24,000 nucleotides of DNA from an uncultured Bacteroides sp. Lineage in GTDB: Bacteria; Bacteroidota; Bacteroidia; Bacteroidales; Bacteroidaceae. The first letter of the stretch is position 1; each line of letters opens with the position of its first letter. Shown one piece after another: positions 1 to 16,649 of the stretch. The notes beneath the pieces were generated by a model. That model was given only the letters and a program-made list of their open reading frames with translations, had not been told where the DNA came from and did no database searches. The stretch covers positions 1 to 24,000 of the forward strand of contig CALULP010000045.1 of the NCBI GenBank assembly GCA_944321495.1, read 5' to 3'. The translations under genes and the position numbers were made by a program.

Positions 1-2
1 AC

Positions 3-269
3 GATAGTCAGACTGAACAGATGCAAACAGTTCTTGACCAGCTGGCTGAGCCTTCTGTGCGGGAACGAATCTTCTCTATCGCTGATGCTTTGATTGGCGG
101 ACAACCTGTTGCTGTTTCATCCGGCGGAGGCGGTGGCAACGCCGATTCCGACCTTCGCTGGGATGGAAGAAGGCCGGATGAGGAGGAAGAGGTGTATCGG
201 AGAAGATGTTTGATGCAGGCTTTTAAGGTTGTGCAGGTTCATAATAGGAAAAGTTATAGGAGGAATTGA
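3..269 (+). CDS. 3' end of a gene running off the left edge (C-terminal ~88 aa); function unknown, possibly the tail of a mobilisation/relaxase-type protein
   Basis: The frame is open from nt 3, with no stop upstream of the listed ATG at 21, and stops at 267-269. It contains a Gly run (SSGGGGGN) followed by an acidic then basic tail. GC is visibly higher than in the following 9 kb. The Mob/relaxase idea rests only on my recollection of similar C-terminal tails in Bacteroidales Mob proteins and cannot be verified here. Confidence 0.35.
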   Translation, partial: DSQTEQMQTVLDQLAEPSVRERIFSIADALIGGQPVAVSSGGGGGNADSDLRWDGRRPDEEEEVYRRRCLMQAFKVVQVHNRKSYRRN

Positions 270-367
270 ATTGGACTATCCATATTGATAACTTGAATGA
301 AACGCAAAGAAATATATTTTAATTGAAAGTATTTTGTGGAAAATGTTCAACCTATAATATAATTCGT

Positions 368-375
368 TAAATTTG
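368..375 (+). promoter_or_regulatory. Candidate Bacteroidota -7 promoter box (TAAATTTG, consensus TAnnTTTG) for the HTH-methyltransferase operon
   Basis: Exact match to TAnnTTTG 24 nt upstream of the ATG at 399. A TTTG lies at 333-336, but its spacing is longer than the usual ~20 nt. Confidence 0.35.
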
Positions 376-398
376 CGCTAATATACACACTATGATAT

Positions 399-626
399 AT
401 GGCAGACATCAATAGAATAAAAGTAATTCTCGTTGAGAAGAAAAAAACCAATAAGTGGTTGGCAGACCAAATTGGCAAAGATCAGGCTACGGTAAGTAAA
501 TGGTGTACCAATACTACCCAACCCAGCCTTGATACATTGGTGGAAATTGCTCGTATTCTTGAAGTTGATGTTCGGGAATTGCTCGTCCCGACAGATGCTC
601 AAAAGATAATGATGACCGTATTGTAA
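399..626 (+). CDS. XRE/Cro-C1-type helix-turn-helix transcriptional regulator (75 aa); candidate controller (C) protein of the adjacent R-M module
   Basis: Classic HTH_3 pattern: KKKTNKWLADQIGKDQATVSKWCTNTTQPSLDTLVEIARILEVDVRELL. It is small and sits 17 nt upstream of, and co-directional with, two methyltransferase genes. Confidence 0.85.
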   Translation: MADINRIKVILVEKKKTNKWLADQIGKDQATVSKWCTNTTQPSLDTLVEIARILEVDVRELLVPTDAQKIMMTVL

Positions 627-643
627 ATAGTTTTTAATAAGAA

Positions 644-1744
644 ATGCATACTACACATTCTATATACTTTGCTTTTTCACAAAATATGCAGTGCATAAAT
701 GATGCAACTGTAGATTTGGTAGTTACTTCTCCTCCATATCCAATGATTGAGATGTGGGACGAGATAATGGCTATGCAAAATCCAAACATCTCTAACGCTT
801 TAAATGACAATCCAACATTGGCTTTTGAACTGATGCATCGAGAACTTGATAAGGTGTGGGCAGAATGCTATCGTGTAATTAAAGACGGAGGTTTGATGTG
901 TGTAAATATTGGTGATGCCACTCGAACTATTAACAAAAATTTTCAACTTTATAACAATCATACTCGTATTGTTGAAGCCTGTCTAAAACTTGGATTTATT
1001 AATTTACCCAATATTATATGGCGTAAACAGACTAATGCTCCCAATAAGTTCATGGGCAGTGGAATGTTGCCTTGTGGTGCCTATGTAACTTTAGAACATG
1101 AATGGATTCTCGTTTTTCGCAAAGGTGGCAAACGCGACTATAAAAAGGATTCGGACAAAGCCATCCGTCGCAAAAGTTCGTTTTTCTGGGAGGAGCGTAA
1201 TAAATGGTTCTCAGATTTGTGGGAAATAAAGGGCGTAAAGCAGAAGATCAATAACTCGCAAACGCGCGAACGCAATGCGTCTTACCCTTTGGAGATTCCA
1301 TATCGCTTAATAAATATGTATTCGCAACAAGGAGATACGATACTTGATCCTTTTTGTGGTCTTGGGACAACTGCTATTGCAGCTATGCTTACATGCCGTA
1401 ATAGTATTGGAGTAGATATTGATAAGGCATTAGAACCTTCAATTCGGGATAATATTGAGGGACTGCAAATTGATATGTTGAATGCACTCATAGCAGATCG
1501 ATATAATAAACATTTGGACTTTGTTAAGGAGAGAGAGGAGCAAGGTAAGGAATTAAAGTATGAGAATTCTAATTTGATGTGTAAGGTGATGACTTCACAA
1601 GAAGTGGACATTAATTTATACTATCTTGATAGTATAACCCTTAAGACAGATAAAACTCTGACTTATGAATGTACTTATTTTGATGATGTAGCCATTAATG
1701 AATATGTTCCTAATAACAGGAATACACTATTCTTTAGGATATGA
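644..1744 (+). CDS. DNA amino-methyltransferase, beta class (N4-cytosine or N6-adenine), M1
   Basis: Catalytic motif IV is N-terminal (DLVVTSPPYP) and the AdoMet motif I is C-terminal (ILDPFCGLGTTAIAA). This is the circularly permuted beta-class order of the N6_N4_Mtase family (PF01555). SPPY is most typical of m4C enzymes. Confidence 0.9.
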   Translation: MHTTHSIYFAFSQNMQCINDATVDLVVTSPPYPMIEMWDEIMAMQNPNISNALNDNPTLAFELMHRELDKVWAECYRVIKDGGLMCVNIGDATRTINKNFQLYNNHTRIVEACLKLGFINLPNIIWRKQTNAPNKFMGSGMLPCGAYVTLEHEWILVFRKGGKRDYKKDSDKAIRRKSSFFWEERNKWFSDLWEIKGVKQKINNSQTRERNASYPLEIPYRLINMYSQQGDTILDPFCGLGTTAIAAMLTCRNSIGVDIDKALEPSIRDNIEGLQIDMLNALIADRYNKHLDFVKEREEQGKELKYENSNLMCKVMTSQEVDINLYYLDSITLKTDKTLTYECTYFDDVAINEYVPNNRNTLFFRI

Positions 1745-2715
1745 TTGAGCCTACCGTACATAAACTCATCAATGGAGATAGCCGTTGCATGTCACTGATT
1801 CCAGATTGCTCAGTGCAACTTATAGTTACGTCGCCACCATACTGGCAATTAAAGGACTACGGTTCAGATGAGCAGATAGGATTCAATGATACATATGAGC
1901 AGTATATTAATAGCCTTAACCTTGTGTGGAGTGAATGTTATCGTGTTCTATCAAATGGATGTAGGTTGTGTATCAATGTTGGTGATCAATTTGCTCGTTC
2001 TGTCTATTATGGACGCTATAAGGTTATACCAATTCATTCTGAAATAATTCGTTTCTGTGAAACTATCGGTTTTGACTACATGGGTAGCATTGTATGGCAA
2101 AAGCCTACAAATATGCATACCACTGGAGGGCAGAAAGTAATGGGTAGTTATCCATATCCTCGTAATGGCATAGTTAAATTTGATTTCGAGCATATTCTCC
2201 TTTTTAAAAAGTTAGGAAATGCTCCACTTGTAAATAATTCAGTGCGTAAGCAATCAGTACTAACAGATGAAGAATGGCAAAGATATTTCTCTTCGCATTG
2301 GACTTTTGGTGGCGCACGCCAAGATAGACACATTGCCGTATTTCCAGAGGAACTGCCTAAACGTCTCATAAAAATGTATTCTTTTGTAGGGGATACAGTC
2401 TTAGATCCATTTATAGGTAGTGGCACAACTGCACTTGCTGCTCGTAATCTTGGTCGTAATTCAATAGGTTATGAAATAAATTCTAACTTTTTAGATTATT
2501 ATAGAGAAAAAGTAACGAAAACTGAAGAATGTACTTTTTATTATGAAGTAGATGATAAGCGAATTGATATTGATTCGGCCATTAACCGATTGCCTTATCG
2601 CTTCATAGATGTGCATAAATTTAACAAACAGGTTGATGTAAAGGCAAATACATTTGGGTCGGTTATGGAAGATAAAAGCATAAATAAAAATTTGAATAAA
2701 ATGAATAAAAAATAG
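1741..2715 (+). CDS. DNA amino-methyltransferase, beta class (N4-cytosine or N6-adenine), M2
   Basis: Motif IV is QLIVTSPPYW and motif I is VLDPFIGSGTTALAA. The start overlaps the M1 stop in ATGA (1741-1744), implying translational coupling. Confidence 0.9.
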   Translation: MIEPTVHKLINGDSRCMSLIPDCSVQLIVTSPPYWQLKDYGSDEQIGFNDTYEQYINSLNLVWSECYRVLSNGCRLCINVGDQFARSVYYGRYKVIPIHSEIIRFCETIGFDYMGSIVWQKPTNMHTTGGQKVMGSYPYPRNGIVKFDFEHILLFKKLGNAPLVNNSVRKQSVLTDEEWQRYFSSHWTFGGARQDRHIAVFPEELPKRLIKMYSFVGDTVLDPFIGSGTTALAARNLGRNSIGYEINSNFLDYYREKVTKTEECTFYYEVDDKRIDIDSAINRLPYRFIDVHKFNKQVDVKANTFGSVMEDKSINKNLNKMNKK

Positions 2716-2751
2716 AGTAGTCACATATAAGAATATCCTTGACTCGACTGA

Positions 2752-2869
2752 GTATCAGAATTAGCACTTCAATATAACTTCAGTTCAGGCAAGACAACGG
2801 ATATTCACGCCATATAGGGTGTGGATAGCGAGGTTGTTGTCTGAAGTAGGCAGTGCTAAGCCTTGATAC
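2752..2869 (+). other. Long imperfect hairpin (~118 nt) in the M2 3' UTR / intergenic region; possible structured RNA or regulatory element
   Basis: Four colinear nested helices read by hand. They are 2752-2757/2864-2869 (gtatca/tgatac), 2761-2767/2853-2859 (ttagcac/gtgctaa), 2777-2783/2841-2847 (acttcag/ctgaagt) and 2794-2798/2836-2840 (acaac/gttgt). Local GC is higher than in the flanks. No ORF covers it. Confidence 0.3.
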
Positions 2870-2885
2870 CAATAATCTCATCCAC

Positions 2886-2925
2886 GCCCTTTTTTCTCTA
2901 TAGATTGAGGAAAAGGGGCTTTTTA
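2886..2925 (+). terminator. Rho-independent terminator after the HTH-M1-M2 operon, upstream of the candidate endonuclease gene
   Basis: A 13-bp stem (2886-2898 gcccttttttctc / 2907-2919 gaggaaaaggggc, two G-U wobbles), an 8-nt loop (tatagatt), then tttttа-type T run at 2920-2924. Confidence 0.7.
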
Positions 2926-2966
2926 TATGAGAACAAAGATGGTTTTTACTATAAAAGAGTCAAGAT

Positions 2967-3560
2967 ATGAAAAAGAAAATTTACAATCAGGCTGTTGAAG
3001 AACTTTCAAATGCGGAAGCATATAATTTCCCGAAGTACACCACACAGATTATTAATCTTGTGAATAGTAATGCACAAGGAACCCGACCATCCGTTGTTGG
3101 TCAAATGTCTGAACTAATTCAAGCGTTTCCCGGTAAATCTTTGGCCGAGTGGATTGAATGGTATTCTGAACAACAACCCAATGCGGTAAATAATGCAACA
3201 GACAAAATTTGGTCTAAGTTACAAGAAATGAAAGATGCTGTTGCTCTTATAGATAAGCCAATGGTCGAAGCATGGGTAAAGGATTTGGTTTATACTAAGA
3301 CATATTGTGGTTTGAAATTTCAAGAAGCTATCCTTGCATATTTGGCTCGTGAATATAATACCACCTATCGTTTAGCCTCCATTGAAGAAGAGTCTCAAGG
3401 CATAGATGGTTATTTGAACAATAACCCAGTCCAAATAAAATCTATTACATATAAGCAGGAAGCACTTTTGTCAGAGGTCATTAATGTTCCCATCATATAC
3501 TATGATAAAAAGAAAGATGGTATTAACATTGAATTTGAACCGAATGATTTTGGATTATAA
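2967..3560 (+). CDS. Candidate Type II restriction endonuclease (197 aa), PD-(D/E)xK-like
   Basis: Its position next to two MTases fits. A possible nuclease core is SIEEESQGIDGYLNNNPVQIKS (acidic cluster, D, then Q-x-K 10 residues later). The N-terminal FPKYTTQIINLVNSNAQGTRPSVVGQMSELI reminds me of proteins annotated as MjaI-family endonucleases. That is recollection, not a search result. Confidence 0.5.
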   Translation: MKKKIYNQAVEELSNAEAYNFPKYTTQIINLVNSNAQGTRPSVVGQMSELIQAFPGKSLAEWIEWYSEQQPNAVNNATDKIWSKLQEMKDAVALIDKPMVEAWVKDLVYTKTYCGLKFQEAILAYLAREYNTTYRLASIEEESQGIDGYLNNNPVQIKSITYKQEALLSEVINVPIIYYDKKKDGINIEFEPNDFGL

Positions 3561-3588
3561 AGTGTAGTAATAAAAAAGTAATAATTTG

Positions 3589-4550
3589 AATCAGTAGTTG
3601 AAAATAAGGTATAAAAAAGCGATAGCAATCTTACCCATCGTATGAATTAGGAGTCCGCAAGTAGAGCGACACTTACCAGCTCTTTGAATATCTGTTTTTT
3701 CGTTCAGCCAGCTGAAGAGGGCCTCAATGGGTTCCCTGACAGATGAAACGGCTTGAGAATAAAGGTCATCAGCGGCCTTGCACCACTGCTTTTCTTTCTC
3801 AGAAGCCCCTTTGATGGACTTGACAGGAGCATAGAACTCATTGGCCTTGTCGCGTCTCTCCCGCTCCCAGTAGTCACGGCTCCGGTATATCTTGTCAGCG
3901 AAGATATTCTTGTTGAAAAGATCCGGCACGCATTCGCTCTGGAAGACCTTCAGGTCATTCTCTGAGGCAGGAGACAGCGCTATCTGGCACGGATGAGGAA
4001 GATGTCCTTTCCTGCGATAGCCTACCATGTGAAGCTTCAGTCCATGATAGTACAGGTTCTTGGTAGAACAGTATCCCTTGTCAGCGATATCCCTGGCGAC
4101 CTTGCCGGTACGGTTTCTGCCGCAGCATGTGATTATCGGCATTGAGTCAACAATGACGGTATCTTCCTGACAATCAGAAGGCTTGAACATGCGCAACAAC
4201 TGCGAGGACAGTTCCGTGACAGCTCCGGCCATCCTGTTGAGACGGTAATTGAATGTCTGATAGGACACCAGCTTTGGGAACCACTCCCGCAGGTACTCTT
4301 TAGCGAAGTTGTGAATATCCTTGATGAGGGTGTACTTCTGCTCATGACCGACAAAGAAATAAATCGTAAGAATTTCCTCGTCGGAGAACAACGGTTTCGA
4401 ATTATTGCTGTATCTTTGGCAATGGTATTTGAGACTCTGTTCGTACATATCGCAGATATACATATAGATTTTTATTAGTCTATACTCTTTGTCCTTGGGA
4501 ATCATAACAAGCAAAAAATAGGGGTATTTTTTACTTTTAAGTTACTGATT
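3589..4550 (-). mobile_element. IS982-family insertion sequence (~0.96 kb)
   Basis: A single DDE transposase gene almost fills the element. Imperfect terminal inverted repeats are 3589-3604 (aatcagtagttgaaaa) versus the reverse complement of 4535-4550 (aatcagtaacttaaaa), 13/16 identical. GC is about mid-40s%, distinct from the ~30% flanks. No clear target-site duplication is seen, so the boundaries are approximate. Confidence 0.6.
3591..4505 (-). CDS. IS982-family DDE transposase (304 aa from the ATG at 4505; the ORF track starts at an upstream TTG at 4514)
   Basis: The length (~300 aa) and sequence character fit IS982-type transposases common in Bacteroidales. Motifs include VIVDSMPIITC and IFADKIYRSRDYW, with a C-terminal REPIEALFSWL...RAGKCRS block giving a DDE-like arrangement. 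Confidence 0.75.
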   Translation of the reverse strand: MIPKDKEYRLIKIYMYICDMYEQSLKYHCQRYSNNSKPLFSDEEILTIYFFVGHEQKYTLIKDIHNFAKEYLREWFPKLVSYQTFNYRLNRMAGAVTELSSQLLRMFKPSDCQEDTVIVDSMPIITCCGRNRTGKVARDIADKGYCSTKNLYYHGLKLHMVGYRRKGHLPHPCQIALSPASENDLKVFQSECVPDLFNKNIFADKIYRSRDYWERERRDKANEFYAPVKSIKGASEKEKQWCKAADDLYSQAVSSVREPIEALFSWLNEKTDIQRAGKCRSTCGLLIHTMGKIAIAFLYLIFNY

Positions 4551-4601
4551 TCCAGGGACTTTTACAAGTATTTCATCCCTTAATCTTCAAATATTTACAA
4601 C

Positions 4602-4609
4602 TAATTTTG
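4602..4609 (+). promoter_or_regulatory. Candidate -7 promoter box (TAATTTTG) for the Qat operon
   Basis: Exact TAnnTTTG match 69 nt upstream of the qatA ATG. It lies outside the IS right end. No good -33 TTTG is seen. Confidence 0.3.
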
Positions 4610-4643
4610 AGGCCTGAATGACCTCGGTTAAACTTATAAATTA

Positions 4644-4660
4644 CAGCAGTTCAACTGCTG
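4644..4660. promoter_or_regulatory. Perfect palindrome cagcagt-tca-actgctg in the qatA leader (operator or leader hairpin)
   Basis: 7-bp perfect inverted repeat (8 bp if the t-a pair is closed), 17 nt upstream of the start codon at 4678. Confidence 0.35.
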
Positions 4661-4677
4661 ATTGGAATTAATAATAT

Positions 4678-6513
4678 ATGTGGCCAGATAAAGAGACTGA
4701 AATTGACTACCTAAACTTTGGATATATGGTAGACATGGTTGTGGATATTGCGACCAATCGACAGCTATCCCCATCTACTATTGGTCTATATGGTGATTGG
4801 GGTAGTGGAAAATCTACTTTAATGAGACTTGCAAAAAAGAAGATTGAGGAATGCGATCAAAAAGTTGATAGAAAGGATGGCGCATCAAAACAGAAGTCTC
4901 TTTGTATTGAATTTAATGGTTGGTTATTCGAAGGTTACGAAGATACAAAAACATCCTTGTGTGGAACTATCTTGGATGCTCTTACCGATAAAAAAAGATT
5001 CGGTCCAGAAGTGGCTGAAAAAGCTAAGGAACTTATCAAGAAGATAGATTTTAAGAAAATAGTAAGCAAAAGTGTTAAATTTGGACTGGACTTCCTGATT
5101 ACAGGTGGTATAGGAGCTCTTACAGACTTAACGCTTAGCAGTATCCTTACATCTATCAAAAATTCATCTGCGGAAATAGATGCCAAGCAAATAGAGGAAA
5201 TTCTTGAAAAATTTAAAAAGGAGGAAAATACCCGTACTGATGTAAAAAATTTCAGGAAGGAGTTTAAGGATTTGCTTGAAATGAGTAAAGTCGAACATGT
5301 TGTCGTTTTTATTGATGAATTAGACCGTTGTCAACCAGATACCATACTTGAAGTATTTGAAGCTATGCGCTTATTCCTTTTTGTAGAAGGAACGTCTTTC
5401 ATCATCGGCGCAGATGAACGCTTGATTCAGTATGCTATTAAAAGTAAATATAAAGAAGTGCCTGGAAATAATTTGGATATTGGGAAAGAGTATCTTGAAA
5501 AAGTAATACAATACCCAATAACTATTCCACAACTCAATCGTACAGAGGTTAATCAATATCTTTCTTGTCTTCTATTAGAAAAACGCCTTGAAGATAAACA
5601 TGATTTTAATCAATTGCTTTCGGTAATTAATTCATTAAAGCCTGATGAAGAATTTACGATGGAACTTATTAATGCAAAGGCACATTCAATAGCTGATTCT
5701 TGTAAGGATGAGATGGCTCTTTCGCGACAGATTTCTTCCGTTTTAGCTCCAAGTATAAATGGTAATCCACGGCAATGCAAGCGCTTTTTAAATATGCTAT
5801 ATATGCGTTTAAATTTAGCTAAAGCAAGACAAGTGAATTTGGATAGAAATATTCTTGCTAAACTTATGCTTGCTGAGTATTTTAATCCAGAGTTTTTTAA
5901 AACCGTAATAAAACCAAAGAATCGAGAACAATTCAAAGTCTTTGAAAATGGTGAACAATTGAGTGAGGATAATCCTTTTTTCAGTTGGAAAGACAAAGAT
6001 TGGGTGAAAGAATGGATAAATAATGACACTCGAATCGGTGAGGCTAAATTAGAAGAGTATGTATATTTTTCTTCCGTAAAAAATAGATATGGCCAGTCTA
6101 ACCTTAGCCAACTGAGTCCGACCGCTAAAAAATGTTACGATTTTTTGGTGGATGGTACTGAGACAAACAGAAAAGAAGCATTGAAGTTGGTGGAAAGTAT
6201 TGCACCTGGAGAAAAAGCCATTATTGCATCTGAGTTATTTTCAATAATAGAAAATTGTTCTACAATGAATATTGAGGTGCTGCGTTCCTATGCTGATTTC
6301 AGTGTGAAAGCAGGGATGATTCCTGAAGCATTGAAGAATTTAATGAGTCTTCCGGTGAATCAATATGATGTGGCATCTTATGGTCAACTTACTCCTTTTA
6401 TATTAAAACTTAGTTCTGAAGAGTCAAAGCAATTTAATACATACCTCATGACTAACAAAAAACTACAATCAACCATTGAGAGAGGTTCTCAATTAAATAA
6501 AATATTAGAATAA
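4678..6513 (+). CDS. qatA: KAP-family P-loop NTPase (611 aa), QatA-like
   Basis: Walker A is LYGDWGSGKSTLM, Walker B is HVVVFIDELDRCQPD (the KAP-typical DELDRC), and the later motif is GNPRQCKRFLN. A hydrophobic or amphipathic insert (FGLDFLITGGIGALTDLTLSSILTSI) lies between Walker A and B, as in KAP NTPases (PF07693). It is the first gene of the 4-gene operon. Confidence 0.85.
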   Translation: MWPDKETEIDYLNFGYMVDMVVDIATNRQLSPSTIGLYGDWGSGKSTLMRLAKKKIEECDQKVDRKDGASKQKSLCIEFNGWLFEGYEDTKTSLCGTILDALTDKKRFGPEVAEKAKELIKKIDFKKIVSKSVKFGLDFLITGGIGALTDLTLSSILTSIKNSSAEIDAKQIEEILEKFKKEENTRTDVKNFRKEFKDLLEMSKVEHVVVFIDELDRCQPDTILEVFEAMRLFLFVEGTSFIIGADERLIQYAIKSKYKEVPGNNLDIGKEYLEKVIQYPITIPQLNRTEVNQYLSCLLLEKRLEDKHDFNQLLSVINSLKPDEEFTMELINAKAHSIADSCKDEMALSRQISSVLAPSINGNPRQCKRFLNMLYMRLNLAKARQVNLDRNILAKLMLAEYFNPEFFKTVIKPKNREQFKVFENGEQLSEDNPFFSWKDKDWVKEWINNDTRIGEAKLEEYVYFSSVKNRYGQSNLSQLSPTAKKCYDFLVDGTETNRKEALKLVESIAPGEKAIIASELFSIIENCSTMNIEVLRSYADFSVKAGMIPEALKNLMSLPVNQYDVASYGQLTPFILKLSSEESKQFNTYLMTNKKLQSTIERGSQLNKILE

Positions 6514-7337
6514 TGGGAACATCAAACTTGTATAAAGGTCCGAAAAAAACGATATTGCTACCATCAGATTATAATCCTGATCAAATACCAGAATTGAGTA
6601 ATTCTCCAGAGAATGTCCCGGAGCAAGAGTTACCTTCAACTGACCCAGAGGAGAATGAACCTGAAAAGTCTCCAATACAGCCTGTAACTTGGGGGACTGT
6701 TCGTAGTTCTATTAGAAAAGCGATGAATAATAGAAGCAGACGTAATGTTACGGATGCGATAAGAAATTATACGAAGGCTCTCGGTGGGCACACTAATGCG
6801 ACGCGTCAAGCAGTAAAAGTTAGGAATGCTGCTGGTGTACTCTATTCTTATTTTGCAGGAGCTCCAGATGTAATTCGTAAAAGATTAGAAGAAGTTGGTA
6901 TCCAATTCAGAGATAGGACAACAAAGGATATATTTCGCGATATATGTAATTTTATAACTCCTGTTCCCAATGATTTAGAGGATTCATTAGTCAACATTGC
7001 GCTGCAAGAAACATTTGCAGATGTAGCAGCTGATCCGAATATTGATCTCAGTAGGTTGGAAAGTTTCAATGAGGAATTATTACAAAGACTCATAGGAGGC
7101 TTGATGAAACATTACATATTTGATAAACTTATATTACAATCCGAGCAAACTGCACTAAAAAAATGTACGAACACAACAAAGTTGCGAGAACTGGAAAAAA
7201 ATATAAAATTTTATATTGATGGTATTGTTGATAGCATAATTCCTAAATTAGTTCGAACCGGAATGAATCCTTCCGATTTCAATCGAGCTTTGGAAGTTTT
7301 ATGTGATATGTCATATAAACAAATGGAGGAGTTATAA
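6513..7337 (+). CDS. qatB: Unknown-function protein (274 aa), QatB-like by position
   Basis: No catalytic motif is recognisable. The N-terminus is MGTSNLYKGPKK, followed by a Pro/Glu-rich low-complexity linker (about aa 20-57) and then a helical-looking C-terminal domain. Start and stop overlap both neighbours by 1 nt (TAATG). The assignment rests on gene order only. Confidence 0.6.
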   Translation: MGTSNLYKGPKKTILLPSDYNPDQIPELSNSPENVPEQELPSTDPEENEPEKSPIQPVTWGTVRSSIRKAMNNRSRRNVTDAIRNYTKALGGHTNATRQAVKVRNAAGVLYSYFAGAPDVIRKRLEEVGIQFRDRTTKDIFRDICNFITPVPNDLEDSLVNIALQETFADVAADPNIDLSRLESFNEELLQRLIGGLMKHYIFDKLILQSEQTALKKCTNTTKLRELEKNIKFYIDGIVDSIIPKLVRTGMNPSDFNRALEVLCDMSYKQMEEL

Positions 7338-8632
7338 TGAGAAATTGTTTTGTTTTTACGCTCTCTGATAAAGATAGCTATAGGATTGCTAATTCCGCAA
7401 CAGTTAATATAAATGATTCGTCATTTTTTTGCTATACATTTTGGAAACCACGTATAGGAGGTAAAAAGCAAACATATATAACTCCGTATAGATTTTCCAA
7501 TGAAGCACTTGACTTACTCTATATATCATTGATGATTTTTTATGTCGATAGAAAGGTAAAACGTAAGGATCAGAATGATGCATGGACTCGCTATTTCGAA
7601 TTATATATGCCAGTAAAGGATGAGGTAAAATGGGAAGGTTGTAAGAAAATACTAACCGATGCTTTGAACTTTCTTACTGGAGATCATTGGATATTGCATT
7701 TCCGCAGCTGGACTTCTTTGACTGATGAAGAATACAACTATAGAAAAGGAAGACATAGGTATAGACGCTCTGTCAAGACAATAGATACAGATGTGTTTTG
7801 TATGTTATCAGGGGGCTTGGATTCTTTCATAGGGGCGATTAATTTACTTAAAGACGGTAAAAAACCATTTTTTATTAGTCATTATGGTGGAGGGAAAGGC
7901 GTTAAGAAATACCAAGATAATGTTGTAAACTCATTGTCTACATATTTTAATGTAAGACAAAAATGCTTTTTCCGTTTTTATGCTGCGGCTCAAGGTGGAG
8001 AAGAGGACACTACAAGATCACGTTCATTAATGTTCTTTGCACATGCCATTGCTATTGCATCTGGGATGAATCATCATGTTGACTTGTACATTCCGGAAAA
8101 TGGAGTTATTTCATTAAATATACCTCTTACAATTATGCGCCTCGGTAGTTTAAGTACTCGTACTACACATCCATATTTTATGGATTTATTACAACAACTC
8201 ATAACAAAACTCGGTTTAGATATTACTTTAATAAATCCTTTCCAATTTTTAACTAAAGGAGAGATGATGGCAACATGCTTAGATCAAGATTTCTTGAACG
8301 GACACTATCATAATACATTATCTTGTTCACATCCTGATCAAGGTCGTTGGTCTGGCGAGGAAGCTGGACATTGTGGTGAGTGTTTGCCATGTACAATTCG
8401 TAGGGCTGCCATTAATGCAGTGCATTTAGAGGATAAATCATGTTATCGTCACAATTATGATACCCCAACAGGTAAAGAAGTGTTGCAATCTTACAAACTT
8501 GGATTATCTAACCCTAAAGATAGTATGGCAGCAATTCAAATGTCTGGCCCAATTAAAAACAATCAACAGGATTATGCCGCTCTTTATGAGCGAGGAATAA
8601 AAGAATTAAAGGATTTTATAGATTTATTTTGA
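7337..8632 (+). CDS. qatC: QueC-like PP-loop ATPase family protein (431 aa), QatC-like
   Basis: The PP-loop is VFCMLSGGLDSFIGA at about aa 155. The C-terminal Cys cluster CSHPDQ...GHCGECLPCTIRR resembles the QueC zinc site (PF06508 family). A ~150-aa N-terminal extension is absent from housekeeping QueC. Confidence 0.8.
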   Translation: MRNCFVFTLSDKDSYRIANSATVNINDSSFFCYTFWKPRIGGKKQTYITPYRFSNEALDLLYISLMIFYVDRKVKRKDQNDAWTRYFELYMPVKDEVKWEGCKKILTDALNFLTGDHWILHFRSWTSLTDEEYNYRKGRHRYRRSVKTIDTDVFCMLSGGLDSFIGAINLLKDGKKPFFISHYGGGKGVKKYQDNVVNSLSTYFNVRQKCFFRFYAAAQGGEEDTTRSRSLMFFAHAIAIASGMNHHVDLYIPENGVISLNIPLTIMRLGSLSTRTTHPYFMDLLQQLITKLGLDITLINPFQFLTKGEMMATCLDQDFLNGHYHNTLSCSHPDQGRWSGEEAGHCGECLPCTIRRAAINAVHLEDKSCYRHNYDTPTGKEVLQSYKLGLSNPKDSMAAIQMSGPIKNNQQDYAALYERGIKELKDFIDLF

Positions 8633-9333
8633 TGGGATACCTATACGACACACATTTTCACCTCGATTTACAAAAAAATAAATCAGAGGCAATTCGTGAG
8701 ATAGAGGAGAAGCAAATATATACTATAGCAGTTACTAATCTTCCTGATTTATATAGGAAGGAATCAATTGAGATAGCAAGTAAGTATATTAGATTTGCAT
8801 TAGGTTTTCACCCAGAGCTACTTCATCTTTATAAGGAACAAATTCCATTAATGTGGGAGTTCTTATCAGAAGCACGGTATATTGGAGAGGTGGGATTAGA
8901 CTTTGTTGATACCACTCATAAAGAAGAACAAATTGCTTTCTTCAATGAACTAGTAGAAAGATGTCGATATGACAGCAGTAAGATAGTTACAATTCACTCT
9001 CGTTGTGCTGTAAAACAAGTATTGGAAATAATAGGTGATAGTTTTAGATTCAAGCCGATTCTTCATTGGTTTACTGGGACCCAAAATGAATTGCATTACG
9101 CAATAGAAAGAGGCTTCTTTTTTTCTGTTAATGGAGCAATGATGGCTTCAAAAAAGTTTAAATCCTTTTTGACATCAATACCTAAAGAGCGTTTGTTGCT
9201 CGAAACAGATAGTCCATTTACTCACTTTAAGAATACACATTCAGATGAGCTATTAAGGGTAGCATTGGCTCTTGTGGAAGAAAAAGAAGGTATAAATTTA
9301 AGGAATAATTTTAGATATTTATTATCACAATGA
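8632..9333 (+). CDS. qatD: TatD-family metal-dependent hydrolase/DNase (233 aa from the ATG at 8632; the track lists TTG at 8629), QatD-like
   Basis: N-terminal DTHFHLD and C-terminal LLLETDSPF are TatD (PF01026) hallmark motifs. The ATG overlaps the qatC stop (TGATG, 8630-8634). Confidence 0.85.
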   Translation: MGYLYDTHFHLDLQKNKSEAIREIEEKQIYTIAVTNLPDLYRKESIEIASKYIRFALGFHPELLHLYKEQIPLMWEFLSEARYIGEVGLDFVDTTHKEEQIAFFNELVERCRYDSSKIVTIHSRCAVKQVLEIIGDSFRFKPILHWFTGTQNELHYAIERGFFFSVNGAMMASKKFKSFLTSIPKERLLLETDSPFTHFKNTHSDELLRVALALVEEKEGINLRNNFRYLLSQ

Positions 9334-9422
9334 AGTCTAATAATCCTTATGATTTTTTATCCACCCTTTCCTCCCATCGCCTCAGACCGTCTCAGACGGC
9401 GTGGTTTGTTTGCGCAAAATTC

Positions 9423-9454
9423 ATTGATTATTGCGTAATATATTGATAATCAAT
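9423..9454. repeat. 9-bp perfect inverted repeat attgattat ... ataatcaat separated by 14 nt
   Basis: 9423-9431 and 9446-9454 are exact reverse complements. The repeat lies in the island/host transition zone, upstream of an orphan terminator. Confidence 0.4.
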
Positions 9455-9542
9455 ATAGATAAATTTCTTCAACGAAGACGAATACTGATGCAAACACGTG
9501 GCAGGGCAGTCTTGCAATCACATGAAGATAAGAAACGAGAAG

Positions 9543-9579
9543 GACGGCAGGAATGGAAAGATTCCTGCCGTCTTTTTTT
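9543..9579 (+). terminator. Strong rho-independent terminator with no annotated gene immediately upstream
   Basis: A 12-bp perfect stem (9543-9554 gacggcaggaat / 9561-9572 attcctgccgtc), a 6-nt loop, then a run of 7 T (9573-9579). It lies 210 nt downstream of the qatD stop. Confidence 0.75.
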
Positions 9580-9690: not shown

Positions 9691-10155
9691 ATGAAGAAAC
9701 TAATGTTTATGCTGTTTACCTTGCTGATGTGGGCGGGGTGCGGGTCTGTTTCCCATTTGCCGTCTTACGGCAGTCTTGTCAACGGTGGCCTTCCCGGATT
9801 TACATTTAACGTGGAGTCATGTCTGGGGAATGCTGTCGAACGGAAAGTAAATGTTACGATAGTCATGTCGCACCGCCTGGAGCCCCAGGAAATCACCCTG
9901 ATGGGGGGCGAGCAGACTTATGCTACCGACCACATGGGCAACCGCTTCCAGGTGGGGTATGCCAACGGGCAGGCTTCGCTGATGGCAGCTCCCGGCGTGC
10001 AGAAGAAAGTGATACTGGAGGTTTGGGGCATTACCCCGAATGTCGATGCGTTCACCTTGGTAAGCTGCCGCATCAGGGCGGTGACGAAAGGAGATGATGC
10101 CGATGCAAAGATTACAGCTTTGCAATTCCATAATGTACCTATTGTCTGGCAATAA
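9691..10155 (+). CDS. Small putative lipoprotein (154 aa), unknown function
   Basis: The N-terminal signal MKKLMFMLFTLLMWAGCGS has a Cys at a lipobox-like position. The codon usage is GC-rich and matches the right-hand block. Confidence 0.55.
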   Translation: MKKLMFMLFTLLMWAGCGSVSHLPSYGSLVNGGLPGFTFNVESCLGNAVERKVNVTIVMSHRLEPQEITLMGGEQTYATDHMGNRFQVGYANGQASLMAAPGVQKKVILEVWGITPNVDAFTLVSCRIRAVTKGDDADAKITALQFHNVPIVWQ

Positions 10156-10187: not shown

Positions 10188-12626
10188 ATGATGATAATTC
10201 CGGAACAAACATCCCGGCAGCTGCCCGCCTTGCGCGAGCGTCATGTGCCGGAAGACTGCCGGGCCGAAGTGCGTGGCTTGTTGCAAGAAGTGTATGGTTA
10301 CAAAGATTTCCGTGACCTTGAGATTTACGACGACTTGTTCAAAGGCAAGGATAAGATATCCCTGTCCCAAGGACAGCTGGTGGAGCACGTTATCCGTGAA
10401 GCAGAGGCTTCCCGCGACGGGAAAGCCGATGTGGACAACATCTTGCTCACGGCGCCTACCGGCTCCGGGAAGTCATTGCTTTTCCAGCTCCCGGCCATCT
10501 ACCTGGGACGGCAATACGGCATGCTGACCTTGGTGGTTTCACCCCTGAAAGCCTTGATTGTGGACCAAGTGGAAAGCTTGCAGGATTTAGGCTACATGCG
10601 GGTGGACTATGCTTCGTCCGACTTGTCGCCCGAGCAAAAGGCAGAGGCATACCGCCGGGTGCGTGAAGGCGAAGTTGACCTGTTTTACCTCTCGCCGGAA
10701 TTATTGCTCTCTTACGACATCCGTCATTTCATAGGCGGCCGCCGCATCGGGCTGGTTGTGGTGGACGAGGCGCATACGGTCACCACCTGGGGCAAGGAGT
10801 TCCGGGTAGACTATTGGTTCCTGGGGCGTTACCTGAACAGTCTGAAGTCCGTGTTGGCCTACAGCTTCCCCCTGTTTGCCCTGACTGCCACGGCGGTCTG
10901 GAACCCGTATGGCGGCAATGACATGGTATTTGAAACCATCCGTTCCTTGCAGATGGAGCCGTGCGTGCTTTATGTGGGCACGGTGAAGCGGCGCAACATC
11001 GGCTTCGACATCCGGCAACTGCAGCCGGAAGAGGGCGAAACCTACGACAAAGCCAAGCAGCGGGTGGTCTCAGCCCGCATAGAAGGCTTCTTGGACGGGC
11101 ATAAAACCCTGTTGTACTATCCGTTTGCCGGAGGCATCGACTTGCGGCTGAAAAGCTGGGTCGGCCCGGCGGACCGCCATTGGGTGGCTTCGTACTACGG
11201 CAAGAAAGACAAAGAGCAGAAGAAAGAAATTGTGCGCGCCTTCAAGGAGGGCGAGAAAAAGTTGATTGTGGCTACCAAGGCTTTCGGCATGGGCGTGGAC
11301 ATCAGCGACATCGACCGGGTGTATCACGTGGCGCCCTCAAGCACCTTTGTCGATTACATCCAGGAGATAGGGCGTGCCGCGCGCGACAACGGCATACAAG
11401 GCATTTCCGCCACCGATTTCCATGAACGCGATTTCTACTACATGAAACGCCTGCACCAGACGGGCAATATCAGCCAGGAACAGTTGGACTTGATTCTCCG
11501 CAAGCTGGTCGAGGTCTATCGCATGAAAGGCGGGAAGCAAGACATGCAGGTGTCGCTGTCCGACTTTGAATTTGTCGTCAAGCTTCCCCGCTGCAAGAAC
11601 AAGCTGGAGTATGAGTCCGAATTGGGGCAACTCATCAAGACGGCATTGCTGTGGTTGGAAGACGACTTGGCGCAGCGTTTCGGGAGGCGGCTGATTGAGG
11701 TCAGCCCGTGCAACCTGCTTACAGAGGGCTTCATGCAGGACAAAACCGGCGATGCCTTTGCCCGTGAGTTCGGCGCTTATCTGGAAAAAGTGGAAGAGGA
11801 CATCTACAAGGTGCGCCTTGACGCCTTGTGGGAAGAGCGTTTCCCGGAACTGGGCTACAAGGAGTACAAGCAGAAGCTGAACAACGGCACCCTGCTCGAG
11901 GGCGCGCGTGCCGTGCTGGTAGGCCGCCATGACGTGCTGCTGAAGGAAGACGCCCCGGTCATCCGCGAAAAGCTGGATGCACTGTTCAAAAGCCTGACCC
12001 TGTTGATGAAAACGGCCCTGTTCAAGAACAAGGGGCATTTTGACGAGACAGCCCTGCGTGCCGTTTTCGAGGAACACCACGTGGATATGCGTCCCGCCAA
12101 GCGCTTCCTGGGCTCGCTGCTCGAATCGCGCACCGAAGAAGGGCGCAGCGTCAGCTATATCAGCAGCGCGAAGAAGAAGGAGTCCAACGAACTGCAGTTT
12201 ACCGTGACCCGCGGTTTCGACCTCCTGCTGTCCCGCTACCAGAAGATGTTTGCCCAGCGCATTGCCGGCTGCAAGGGCGACCGCCTGGTGTTCTACTGCA
12301 CCCCATTTTCCGACCTGAACATGCTGCTCAACCTCCTTTCCATGCTCGACTGCCTGTCGTTCAGCGTAGAAGGCGGGGGCAGCCCTTGCGTGGCCGTCCG
12401 CCTTGACGAGCCGGAAACGTTGCACCAGTTGCTCTCGTCGGGCGCGTATCGCAACCTTATCCTGGACGGAAATGAGCGCATCTTCCAGGAGCAGATAGAG
12501 CTGTTCTCCCTGTTTTTCGGCACGGACAAGCTGGACGATGCCCAACGCTGGGATTTCGTGGAAGACTATTTCACGGGCATGGGCGTGGATGGCCTGCGGA
12601 AGAAATACTTCCCCACGCAAAAGTAG
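10188..12626 (+). CDS. RecQ-like superfamily-2 DNA helicase (812 aa) with an unassigned ~400-aa C-terminal region
   Basis: Motif I is LTAPTGSGKSLLFQLPA and motif II is VVVDEAHTVTTWGKEFRVDY (compare RecQ DEAHCxSxWGHDFRxxY). Motif VI is YIQEIGRAARDNG. No RQC or HRDC-like signature is obvious by eye in the C-terminal half. Confidence 0.8.
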   Translation: MMIIPEQTSRQLPALRERHVPEDCRAEVRGLLQEVYGYKDFRDLEIYDDLFKGKDKISLSQGQLVEHVIREAEASRDGKADVDNILLTAPTGSGKSLLFQLPAIYLGRQYGMLTLVVSPLKALIVDQVESLQDLGYMRVDYASSDLSPEQKAEAYRRVREGEVDLFYLSPELLLSYDIRHFIGGRRIGLVVVDEAHTVTTWGKEFRVDYWFLGRYLNSLKSVLAYSFPLFALTATAVWNPYGGNDMVFETIRSLQMEPCVLYVGTVKRRNIGFDIRQLQPEEGETYDKAKQRVVSARIEGFLDGHKTLLYYPFAGGIDLRLKSWVGPADRHWVASYYGKKDKEQKKEIVRAFKEGEKKLIVATKAFGMGVDISDIDRVYHVAPSSTFVDYIQEIGRAARDNGIQGISATDFHERDFYYMKRLHQTGNISQEQLDLILRKLVEVYRMKGGKQDMQVSLSDFEFVVKLPRCKNKLEYESELGQLIKTALLWLEDDLAQRFGRRLIEVSPCNLLTEGFMQDKTGDAFAREFGAYLEKVEEDIYKVRLDALWEERFPELGYKEYKQKLNNGTLLEGARAVLVGRHDVLLKEDAPVIREKLDALFKSLTLLMKTALFKNKGHFDETALRAVFEEHHVDMRPAKRFLGSLLESRTEEGRSVSYISSAKKKESNELQFTVTRGFDLLLSRYQKMFAQRIAGCKGDRLVFYCTPFSDLNMLLNLLSMLDCLSFSVEGGGSPCVAVRLDEPETLHQLLSSGAYRNLILDGNERIFQEQIELFSLFFGTDKLDDAQRWDFVEDYFTGMGVDGLRKKYFPTQK

Positions 12627-13659: not shown

Positions 13660-16649
13660 ATGAAAAAGCTTTTATCGGTTTTGTTTATGTTGAGCTTGAC
13701 CTTAGCTTCCGTGTATGCGCAGAACATACAGGTAAAAGGTACAGTGGTGAGCGGGACGGACAATGGCCCCTTGCCAGGTGTAAATGTCGTGTTGAAAGGC
13801 AACACGAGTGTGGGAACCATTACCGACATCGACGGTAATTTCAGCCTTTCGGTTCCTTCCGATGCGGTGCTTACCATCTCCTACATCGGCTTTGTGACGC
13901 AAGATGTGCCCGTGAACGGGCAGACCGCGTTGAACATTTCCTTGGCGGAGGATAATGAAACGCTGGATGAAGTGGTGGTCATCGGTTATGGTACGGCAAG
14001 GAAAAGCGACTTGACGGGTTCTTTGTCTTCGGTGAGCAGCGATTCTTACGAGAACCAGAATGTGACCCGTATCGACGAGGCCCTGCAAGGCCGTGCAGCC
14101 GGTATCCAGATTTCGAATACGGTAGGTGCCCCCGGCGGTGACGTGCGTATCCGTATCCGTGGCGCCAACTCCGTGTTGGGCGACAACAGCCCGTTGTTTG
14201 TCATCGACGGTTTCGTAGGTGCCGATTTCAACCTGCTGAACCCTAACGACATCCAGTCCATCGAAGTGCTGAAGGACGCTACGGTTCACGTGGCGCCAAC
14301 GGCGTTGTCCTGGTCACTACCAAGAGCGGCAACAAGGACGGCAAGGTGACGGTGAGCTACCAGGGAAGCGTGTCTATTTCCAATCAGATTAAGAAGTACG
14401 ACATGTTGAGCGCCGGCGATTATGCCACCATCGTAAACGAATATGATCAGGCTATGGGTGTCACGAACCTGAAGTTTACGTCGGACGAGATTGACGAATT
14501 CTACCGCACCGGCGGTTTCGATTACAACGACGCGGTGTTCCGCACGGCAATCTCCAACCAGCACCAGTTGAGCATCTCGGGCGGTACGGAGAAAACGCAG
14601 TACCGTGTGTCCGGCAACTTCTTGAATATGGAAGGCATTGTGCGCGAGTCGGGCTTTAAGCGTTACACCATCCGCGCCAACGTCAATACGCAGGTCAACA
14701 AGAGGTTGTCGTTCCGTTTCAATGCCAACGGCACGTATAGCGACGGCCGCAACAACCAGTCGCGCACCGGTGCCGGCAACCCCGTGGTGCAGGCTATGGC
14801 TTGGGCGCCGACGACCAACCCGTATGACGGCAACGGCGGATATACGATGTCCGACCCTACCGGTTCTATCAAGACCAATCCGTTGGCTTTGATATACGAC
14901 ACGGAGAACCTGCGTTCGCGCACGTTTGTCAACGTGATGGCAGGCGCACGTTATGAGATTATCGACGGCTTGAGCCTCGATTTCCAGGGAGCTGCCGACT
15001 TGGGCTTCTACAACAACAAGACCTGGAGCGGCAACTATGCCTCCAACAACACGCCGAGCGCTTCGAAGACCAACAACCAGGCCGTGACGTTGCAGACCAC
15101 CACGCAGCTGTCTTACGACCGCACGTTTAAGGATATCCACCACATCAACGCCGTGGTAGCCCTGGAAACCCAGAAGTATCAGTGGGAATCGTTGAACGGC
15201 AGTGCATCCAACCTGAAGTTCCCCGATTTGAAGTACGACAACCTGGCGCAGGCCGCATCCAATTCTACAGGTTCGGATTATTCCATGTGGGCCTTGCTGT
15301 CCTACCTGGGCCGTGTCAACTATACGTTGATGGACAAGTACCTGTTCTCAGTATCGGTACGTCGCGACGGTTCTTCTAAGTTTGCCAAGGGCAACCGCTT
15401 CAGTACGTTCCCCGCATTTGCTGTGGCCTGGAATTTGGGTAATGAGGAATTTGTCCAGAACCTGAACGTGTTCGACAAACTGAAACTGCGTGCCAGCTGG
15501 GGCCTCACGGGTAGCCAGGCCATCTCGCCTTACGCTACGTTGGCTACCTATAGCGATATTAACTTCCCCTTCACTACGGCTTCCCGTACCAACGGTATCC
15601 GCATGGGTAATCCCGGCAATACGGACCTGAAGTGGGAAACCACCAAGCAGCTTGACTTGGGTATCGAGTTGGGCTTCTTCAACAACCGCCTGAACATTGA
15701 GTTCGACTACTTCCAGAAGCACACGAGCGACTTGCTGCTGAACAAGACAGTGCCTTATTTCCTGGGTAGCGGCAGCATTGTTTCCAACGTGGGCGATATC
15801 GAGAACAAGGGTATCGAATTCAACATCACGGCCAACATTATTTCGACCAAGGATTGGGGTTGGGAAAGCACGTTCAACTTCTCATCGGTGAAGAACGAGG
15901 TGACCAACCTGGGTGGCGAGACCCGCATCTTTGACTACACGGACGTGACCGGTCTGAACGGCCAGCCTTCCTTTGTTTACCAGGTCGGCGAGTCACTGGG
16001 CTCTTTGTGGGGCTTGAAGTACTTGGGACCGTGGCGCGAAGACCAGGCTGCGGAGGCTGCCAAGTATGGTTGCAAACCGGGCGATGCGCGGTATGAGGAC
16101 GTGGATAACAGTTATACGATAGACGGTTCCGATTACCAGATTATCGGTTGCGGTATGCCGAAGTACTCGTTGGGTTGGAACAATACGGTAACATACAAGG
16201 GCTTTACGCTGAATGCTTTCTTCCAAGGCTCTTTCGGTGCCGATAAGATGAACTTCACGCGTGCCATGCACCTGATGGGCGACCGTGATGCCCGCTATGC
16301 CACTTTGGCCGAAATCAAAGACCGTTACCAGCCCGGAAATGAAAATGCCTGGCTGCCGGCATGGAGCACCAGCAGTAAGTGGGAGCCCCAGTCTACGCTG
16401 TTCATGGAGAATGCCAACTATCTGCGTTTGAAGAACCTGAGCCTGAGCTACGACTTCAAGGTGAAGAATCTGGCAGACTTCAGGGTTTCCGTAAGTGCGA
16501 CCAACTTGTTCACCATCACCAAGTATAAGGGAATCGACCCCGAATCGAGCAACGTGGGCGGTGGCGCTTCCGACGTTCAGCAGGGTGTGGACTATGGTGC
16601 TTACCCCAACTCCAAGACGTACACCATCGGGCTTAACATCACCTTCTGA
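13660..16649 (+). pseudogene. susC: SusC/RagA-type TonB-dependent outer-membrane transporter, interrupted by a frameshift near 14281-14285 (or an assembly error)
   Basis: The N-terminal signal peptide and carboxypeptidase-regulatory-like domain (IQVKGTVVSGTDNGPLPGVNVVLKG...DGNFSL) fit SusC. The plug motif starts as IQSIEVLKDAT in frame 1 and continues as GSRGANGVVLVTTKSGNKDGKV only in another frame. The C-terminus ends with the ...YTIGLNITF beta-barrel terminal motif. The ORF track splits it into 13660-14349 and 14346-16649. Confidence 0.85.

Follow-up and report, generated by a model that had tools for sequence, protein, structure and literature searches.

The window analysed here is a stretch of 24,000 nucleotides from an uncultured Bacteroides sp. 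(contig CALULP010000045.1, positions 1 to 24,000 of the forward strand). Its subject is an operon of four genes at 4678-9333, the products of which, A to D, all match the models for QatA to QatD, the components of the anti-phage system of Gao et al. 2020. The genes are as follows.

4678-6513, + strand: qatA, 611 aa, a KAP-family P-loop NTPase (PADLOC, Pfam, NCBIfam, motifs).
6513-7337, + strand: qatB, 274 aa, with an MGTS start, a disordered tail at residues 1-58 and a ten-helix domain (PADLOC, NCBIfam, AlphaFold2 [AF2] model).
7337-8632, + strand: qatC, 431 aa, a QueC-family PP-loop enzyme (PADLOC, Pfam, NCBIfam, alignment with solved chains).
8632-9333, + strand: qatD, 233 aa, a type II TatD-family nuclease (PADLOC, Pfam, NCBIfam, metal ligands).

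The original prediction, made from the letters of the window, had already named this operon QatABCD, and direct reading confirmed the four co-directional open reading frames (ORFs) and the strings at their junctions: TAATG at 6511-6515, TAATG at 7335-7339 and TGATG at 8630-8634. The motifs on which it drew were also located. In A, these are GDWGSGKST at residues 39-47, FIDELDRC at 211-218 and NPRQCKRFLN at 363-372; C contains SGGLDS and HCGECLPC, and D contains HFHLD and ETDSPF. Two details required correction. The Walker A lysine, given as K46, is K45, and protein B, described as lacking any recognisable motif, opens with a conserved MGTS and matches the QatB models. A mechanical ORF list starts qatD at TTG 8629, one codon before the ATG at 8632; the latter is the start used by all gene calls on related contigs and agrees with the homologues.

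PADLOC matched each of the four proteins to its Qat model (QatA, 2.3e-102; QatB, 2.6e-14; QatC, 3.3e-112; QatD, 2.2e-59), with no competing model for any of them. The Pfam search returned KAP_NTPase (3.1e-47), QueC (1.7e-8) and TatD_DNase (2.9e-36). In NCBIfam, the four Qat equivalogs are the top matches for A to D, and QatC, at 432.7 bits, exceeds its curated cut-off of 280. Stop codons are frequent in DNA of 35% GC, and four long overlapping ORFs greatly exceed what chance would produce there. Moreover, the A-B-C-D order is kept in six related genome loci, with junctions that overlap or nearly abut, and the four-gene form makes up 98% of surveyed Qat clusters (PMC13434339). We consider it very likely that 4678-9333 encodes the anti-phage system QatABCD in intact and canonical form, in a version from a divergent lineage of gut Bacteroidales, and that it is carried as mobile-element cargo behind a restriction-modification (RM) unit. 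QatABCD as such is already known and has been studied structurally; what is added here is the mobile-element context and an insertion sequence (IS) placed upstream of qatA.

The system had been called poorly understood, which is in part outdated, as five papers of 2026 report structures of QatBC and QatD and a model for modification of the QatB N terminus. With the criteria of these papers, residues of the window proteins were mapped against the solved chains and six genome relatives. In the model systems, a 1:1 complex of QatB and QatC is the core defence unit. QatB has its Met1 removed and places Gly2 in the active site of QatC, and defence is lost upon the QatB substitution G2D, upon deletions in the QatB tail and upon mutation of the PP-loop or the Thr-x-Thr motif of QatC. 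QatC does not make preQ0 (7-cyano-7-deazaguanine) (PMC13329287), and an NDG-modified GTSKAY peptide was detected at a low level in one study. QatD, tethered by the QatB tail, is both a Mg-dependent 3'-5' exonuclease and a Ca-dependent apurinic/apyrimidinic (AP) endonuclease and is inhibited by nucleoside triphosphates (NTPs). QatA binds DNA.

The QatB of the window begins MGTSNLYKGP. M1, G2, T3, S4, G9, P10, L15, L16, P17 and Y20 are invariant among 48 homologues, and the first four are invariant also across the six genome loci. Tyr20 is the conserved tail aromatic, which is Trp in the characterised Qat systems. The tail, residues 1-58, is disordered and Pro/Glu-rich with a net charge of -7, and its length falls within the 30-90 aa by which the QatB tail is defined; in the AF2 model, pLDDT is below 50 at residues 1-17 and 19-55, after which ten helices follow. 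A disordered tail and a ten-helix domain have been described likewise for P. aeruginosa QatB in the 2026 literature. The acidic residues E166 and D170 are retained. Comparison with the solved QatB 9vll_A gave 2.3e-5 over the full length by phmmer and a 95% probability by hhalign (E 3.9e-8). No match to the QatB model was found by Foldseek in the PDB to 2026-04-08, from which QatB structures are probably absent, as the QatBC papers date from April to September 2026. The local Pfam copy gave no match to QatB; precomputed annotation assigns the newer family PF28083 (QatB) to the identical protein of related contigs and to every homologue listed.

QatC keeps S158-G-G-L-D162-S163, H182, R229, F233 and the N261-H278 loop with R268 and L269, as well as the zinc cysteines C330, C346, C349 and C352. 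Within this long active-site loop, the Thr-x-Thr residues T274 and T276 stand where QueC has the Tyr and Asp that read 7-carboxy-7-deazaguanine (CDG). These catalytic and motif positions are invariant or nearly so among 144 diverse representatives, with the Thr pair present in 141. Residues 56-428 align with the solved QatC chains 9zee_B (7.5e-69) and 9vlk_A (2.1e-66), which bears out the predicted QueC fold. Both an N-terminal and a C-terminal extension lie beyond the QueC core of this 431-aa protein, and the Pfam QueC match covers residues 280-361 only, in the C-terminal part.

The ligands H8, H10, H60, E86, D90, H122, H145, E191 and D193 are all kept in QatD, mapped on the solved chain 9xsn_A (1.4e-35); their roles have been defined for Acinetobacter QatD (PMC13434339). 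By its HxH motif and binuclear metal ligands, the protein is a type II TatD nuclease, and not an amidohydrolase of some other kind. In QatA, both Walker motifs are intact (A, K45; B, D213/E214), and the C-terminal domain, at about 412-611, is all-helical. The nearest solved fold to its AF2 model (pLDDT 78) is, by Foldseek, the heptameric RdrA ring of RADAR (PDB 8hr8, 8fnt; E 7.6e-7), followed by ORC/Cdc6 and Apaf-1. This fits the 2026 reports of QatA as a heptamer or octamer. However, TM-scores to RdrA are only 0.27-0.34 at about 12% identity, there is no RdrB deaminase partner, and QatA is of the KAP family. Residues 125-185 of the model form a low-confidence insert within the NTPase domain that contains a moderately hydrophobic segment, FLITGGIGALTDLTLSSIL; in the model, this insert is reminiscent of the inserted membrane helices that KAP NTPases have been described to carry.

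Since all of the residues concerned are conserved here, we infer that the published scheme operates in this copy, transferred from the E. coli, Pseudomonas and Acinetobacter systems. QatB would shed Met1 and pair 1:1 with QatC, its acidic, proline-rich tail putting Gly2 into the PP-loop site. With ATP, QatC would adenylate a carboxylate, on CDG or a related molecule, and transfer it to the Gly2 amine; the product would be an N-terminal nucleobase-type modification of QatB that is required for defence. QatD, tethered via the QatB tail, would serve as a metal-dependent 3'-5' exonuclease and AP endonuclease restrained by cellular NTPs, and QatA as a ring-forming, DNA-binding KAP NTPase that broadens the phage range. 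By analogy, the same chemistry, formation of a QatB-QatC complex and anti-phage activity would be expected in Bacteroidales. The solved Qat chains are only distant relatives, and a locus in Variovorax (Pseudomonadota) shares 34% identity in QatC, 35% in QatD and 23% in QatB. Conservation of the catalytic features at about 23-35% identity to the Variovorax locus supports a universal QatB-Gly2/QatC chemistry in the family. The current understanding of the Qat mechanism is left unchanged by these findings; a clean, fully intact Bacteroidales representative is now at hand.

Several points weigh against assignment of the locus as a working QatABCD system. Three of the proteins miss their NCBIfam equivalog cut-offs: QatA (402 vs 600), QatB (54 vs 100) and QatD (213.7 vs 230). 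As a consequence of these scores, public records name 90%-identical proteins only generically, the mates in the 90%-identity clusters being listed as "TatD family hydrolase" or "hypothetical protein". The clade to which these Qat proteins belong is, judged by sequence, a divergent one. The basic residues by which QatC is bridged to QatB in the two crystal complexes have not been kept here: R407, R410 and R414 of the P. aeruginosa protein align with N392, a gap and D395 of the window QatC, and R412, K414 and F415 of the E. coli protein with D395, M397 and A398. Even in the model systems the chemistry is unsettled: CDG-dependent activity was not reconstituted in three laboratories, and the NDG-modified peptide is the low-level product seen in a single study. 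Finally, the IS, an IS982-family element, separates qatA from the genes upstream, the sole promoter candidate facing qatA is a chance-level motif, and the IS-bearing copy of qat may be poorly expressed.

We considered loss of the QatC basic patch as the mark of a re-wired, clade-specific QatB-QatC interface and rejected it, since the segment varies family-wide and is absent in Variovorax too. Its net charge ranges from -6 to +7 among the 144 representatives and is 0 in the window; Arg or Lys stands at the position of P. aeruginosa R407 in about 70% of them, and the other patch positions vary. Because of this variation across the family, the basic patch should not count as a defining feature of QatABCD.

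The original prediction had placed the operon in an AT-rich island of a GC-rich Bacteroidota genome. The step in composition is there, with a GC content of about 32-45% at 1-9500 and about 43-60% beyond, and the island can be defined more closely as the cargo end of an integrative mobilizable element. The features of that element in the window, apart from qatABCD and the IS, are these.

1..269, + strand: 3' end of a Mob_Pre relaxase gene, which begins to the left of the window; the open frame ends at 269.
368-375, + strand: candidate Bacteroidetes-type -7 box TAAATTTG, a pattern match to a motif that is at chance level overall.
399..626, + strand: helix-turn-helix (HTH) protein, 75 aa (HTH_3/HTH_26; weak HTH-repressor matches in NCBIfam).
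644..1744, + strand: type II DNA methyltransferase 1 (N6_N4_Mtase), 366 aa (Pfam 2e-44; PADLOC MTase_II 5.7e-142).
1741..2715, + strand: type II DNA methyltransferase 2 (N6_N4_Mtase), 324 aa (Pfam 6.4e-45; PADLOC MTase_II 1.4e-126).
2967..3560, + strand: MjaI-family type II restriction endonuclease, 197 aa (Pfam RE_MjaI 3.5e-59; PADLOC REase_II 6.8e-58).
9387..9399, + strand: candidate weak terminator-like hairpin, 54 nt after qatD and inside the element (consensus scan, chance-level counts).
9465..9488, no strand: attR, the right element end, TTCTTCAACGAAGACGAATACTGA, in which the 3' end of the DUF2795 target gene is present as a hybrid copy.

A metagenome contig in ENA (L001) matches the window at 100% identity. 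The block of HTH gene, two methyltransferase genes, MjaI gene and QatABCD recurs at an identity of at least 99.6% with at least five different right flanks, and homology between the window and five other contexts stops at 9475-9489. Complete copies of the element, of about 15 kb, are present in two contigs, L013 (2480-18000) and L014. Their gene order is tyrosine integrase, two small ORFs, DUF3987, Zn-ribbon/DUF6371, Mob_Pre relaxase and cargo. In L006, L013 and L014, a distance of 130 bp separates the Mob_Pre gene, of 514-516 aa, from the HTH gene downstream of it, and the frame at 1..269 corresponds to it in position. The target site is the 3' end of a host gene for a 73-aa DUF2795 protein, and insertion regenerates that end. 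In L013, the flanking direct repeats are attL CTCTTCAACGAGGAGGAGTATTGA and attR TTCTTCAACGA[A/G]GA.GA.TA.T.A. The integrase, relaxase, direct repeats and several chromosomal contexts together identify what is, on these features, an integrative mobilizable element, of which the window covers the part from the 3' end of the relaxase gene through the complete cargo to attR; these right-hand two thirds are the low-GC island. No tRNA was found at the element junctions or in the window, and a repeat search around the operon returned short, chance-like pairs only. Neither megablast searches of plasmids and phages nor a scan of the viral contigs in IMG/VR gave a match, so that the cassette, as far as these collections go, is not a known plasmid or phage. 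The HTH, methyltransferase and endonuclease genes at 399-3560 make up a complete type II RM unit, in which the 75-aa HTH product probably serves as the controller (C) protein.

In gene plan, the element resembles the NBU1/NBU2-type mobilizable transposons of Bacteroides. Common to both are a tyrosine integrase gene at one end and cargo at the other, genes for a primase-like protein and a relaxase, and short direct repeats that mark a specific chromosomal site. The element differs in targeting the 3' end of a DUF2795 gene instead of a tRNA gene and in its cargo of RM and Qat.

At E <= 1e-30, the relatives of QatC fall into 583 representative clusters, a number that rises to 2533 when the threshold is set at E <= 1e-10. 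The Bacteroidales branch in metagenomes includes more than 100 clusters at 52-100% identity, and 298 blocks of the assembly collection have an index entry for exactly this QatC. Among named genomes, relatives occur in Proteiniphilum (93%) and in Hoylesella and Alloprevotella (both 70%), and at greater distance in a Bacillota metagenome-assembled genome (57%), Bacteroidales UBA6851 (56%) and Variovorax (34%). Linkage of Qat to an RM unit is confined to the closest lineage. A RefSeq-based survey had found QatD only sporadically in Bacteroidota; in metagenomes of Bacteroidales, in contrast, Qat seems to be a common and mobile system. That the host belongs to the Bacteroidota is supported by SusC/SusD genes in the flank and by the named relatives Alistipes, Bacteroides, Proteiniphilum, Hoylesella and Alloprevotella. 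Of these, Alistipes is tentatively suggested as host by named members of the same clusters and by its similar GC content.

Between the RM unit and qatA lies the IS, for which the following features were recorded.

3586..4668, - strand: IS982-family insertion sequence, 1083 bp (BLAST against contigs L002-L006 breaks at 3585/4666; junction sequences).
3591-4514, - strand: IS982 transposase ORF (NF033520 4.8e-31, below the curated cut-off; DDE_Tnp_1_3).
4602..4609, + strand: candidate Bacteroidetes-type -7 box TAATTTTG that faces outward from the IS end, 68 nt before the qatA ATG (speculative).

The IS is flanked by a 7-bp target duplication, TAATAAT, at 3579-3585 and 4669-4675, and has an imperfect terminal inverted repeat, AATCAG[T/C]AGTTGAA. 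It is present only in the lineage of the window and L001 and absent from the five cassettes L002-L006, which are otherwise at least 99.6% identical. The right end lies 9 nt before the qatA ATG, within the spacer that in the IS-free copies separates the stop of the restriction gene from that ATG by 27 bp; in the 93% relative from Proteiniphilum (L007), the same distance is 14 bp. The IS-free spacer contains no TAnnTTTG box and no terminator-like hairpin. Since it is short and lacks promoter-like and terminator-like signals, qat is probably co-transcribed with the restriction gene in the IS-free copies. QatA, QatC and QatD are identical to those of L002-L006, and a check of the IS-bearing qat ORFs for decay found none. 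The sole amino-acid difference in QatB is at tail residue 24 (window 6582-6584), a polymorphic position of the disordered tail which is Q in the window, E in most copies and G in L003; relative to the common form, the change is E24Q. The insertion upstream of qatA is, by these comparisons, recent. A scan for sigma-70 promoters and terminators was set aside, as its counts were at chance level and the model does not apply to Bacteroidota promoters.

It is possible, if on balance doubtful, that qatABCD in the IS-bearing copy is structurally intact and yet transcriptionally silenced or uncoupled. The IS interrupts a spacer whose lack of signals argues for co-transcription with the RM unit, and this element, which carries an antisense transposase gene, lies 9 nt from the qatA ATG. 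The box at 4602-4609 is the only candidate for a promoter that faces qatA, and TAnnTTTG occurs 20 times in the window against 18 expected, so that single sites are leads only. However, at least five contigs share the arrangement with the IS, and the consensus scan found no terminator-like site on the + strand inside the IS, which would permit read-through. IS elements in Bacteroides often supply outward promoters, a further point against silencing. The undecayed ORFs with their single tail substitution also speak for a functional operon, but they are equally expected if the insertion is recent.

We think it unlikely that the CTAG-type RM unit and QatABCD form one transcription unit under the HTH controller, as a co-regulated, two-layer module, although the spacer of 14-27 bp, in which no promoter or terminator signal was seen, is in favour of it. 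If they did, QatD as exonuclease and AP endonuclease and the QatA ring could, for example, act on DNA ends made by restriction, and the IS982 insertion would be a natural uncoupling or re-wiring of Qat expression from the RM unit. The IS-bearing and IS-free variants offer a ready-made pair for testing both the expression of Qat and its dependence on the adjacent RM unit.

That the RM-Qat block serves chiefly to stabilise the mobilizable element by addiction, with phage defence secondary, seems quite improbable. The block invariably forms the cargo end of one and the same kind of integrase/relaxase element, in its several near-identical chromosomal copies, and in the established literature type II RM units behave as addiction modules. 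However, the E. coli, Pseudomonas and Acinetobacter Qat systems protect against phages when expressed alone, and Qat relatives at 70% identity and below occur without an RM unit. Moreover, roles in addiction and in defence are not mutually exclusive.

Scarcely credible is the reading of protein C as a housekeeping preQ0 synthase, in a cluster that serves queuosine or 7-deazaguanine metabolism: the C-terminal Pfam QueC match and a public record that labels a truncated member of its 90% cluster, a 242-aa QatC fragment of Alistipes ihumii, "7-cyano-7-deazaguanine synthase" are in its favour, but the canonical QueC equivalogs reach 15.9 bits vs 150.3 (TIGR00364) and 12.9 vs 378 (NF008317) where the QatC model gives its 432.7, the CDG-binding Tyr/Asp pair is replaced by Thr/Thr, the protein is about twice as long as QueC with extensions specific to QatC, the gene lies in a qatA-B-C-D operon on a mobile element with an RM system adjoining, and E. 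coli QatC does not complement a queC deletion (PMC13329287). The label on the Alistipes fragment is, on the same comparisons, a misnaming. No Rfam family, preQ1 riboswitches included, reaches threshold anywhere in the window.

The operon at 4678-9333, taken as QatABCD, has its closest characterised counterparts in the systems of E. coli NCTC9009, P. aeruginosa and A. baumannii (Gao et al. 2020; 9zee/9zef, 9vlk/9vll, 9xsn). The gene order and overlapping junctions are the same. Shared features of QatB are the MGTS start, the tail and the ten helices; those of QatC are SGGxDS, TxT, the zinc site, the active-site loop and the extensions; HxH and all metal ligands are shared in QatD, and the KAP NTPase motifs in QatA. 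The present system differs in that it lacks the basic QatC residues of the QatC-QatB bridge seen in both crystal complexes, although that segment varies across the family. It also differs in its Bacteroidota host, in being joined to the RM unit of a mobilizable element and in the insertion of an IS.

A further likeness is to type IV CBASS Cap9-CdnD (Wassarman et al.; PDB 9NTO), which shares a QueC-family PP-loop enzyme with SGGxDS and zinc cysteines and a partner whose Met-Gly-x-Ser N terminus, on a flexible tail, is the presumed acceptor. The two differ in the replacement of Tyr/Asp by Thr/Thr in QatC, in size (QatC is about twice as large as Cap9, of about 185 aa) and in QatB, which is unrelated to CD-NTases. 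Pfam and PADLOC scans of the neighbouring ORFs found no CD-NTase (MGGS N terminus), no TGT-like Cap10 and no CBASS effector; they returned methyltransferase, restriction-enzyme, transposase, helicase, SusC/SusD and TPR matches, with two ORFs left without a match. By analogy, Qat here would work like the deazaguanylation of type IV CBASS, of which it is not a member.

CTAG, which we take to be the site of the MjaI prototype, is nearly absent throughout, with observed vs expected counts of 1 vs 27 in the element, 0 vs 4 in the IS and 0 vs 56 in the host flank. A related unit of controller HTH gene, methyltransferase genes (one full, one fragmentary) and MjaI-like gene occurs in contig L015 (10001-16958), where an unannotated 1215-aa protein takes the place of QatABCD; the genes upstream of it are host-type, without integrase or relaxase. 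This arrangement suggests cargo swapping beside the RM module. In one host context, that of L006 (12423-14237) and L013 (18271-20085), the attR of the element directly adjoins a gene of the GmrSD family (type IV restriction), and in that context the integration site is, by its gene content, a defence-rich neighbourhood.

Host DNA begins at about 9489 and contains a small lipoprotein-like ORF, a RecQ/DpdF-like helicase gene and SusC/SusD genes typical of Bacteroidota. The helicase, of 812 aa (10188-12626), is of the RecQ family and DpdF-like; PADLOC matches it to "C3a193, possible alternative Cas3" at 1.9e-134 and to DpdF at 1.1e-59, and its gene may be a second defence gene, one that the host itself encodes next to the integration site. 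The ORF before it, of 154 aa (9691-10155), has no family match. A strong bidirectional hairpin terminator of 18 pairs (9537-9578) lies in host DNA about 50 nt past the element end, upstream of the 154-aa ORF. Farther on, a SusC/TonB-dependent receptor is split into two overlapping ORFs, at 13660-14349 (CarboxypepD_reg and Plug) and 14346-16649 (beta-barrel); the split, which is the same in L001, suggests a frameshift, due either to a pseudogene or to an assembly error.

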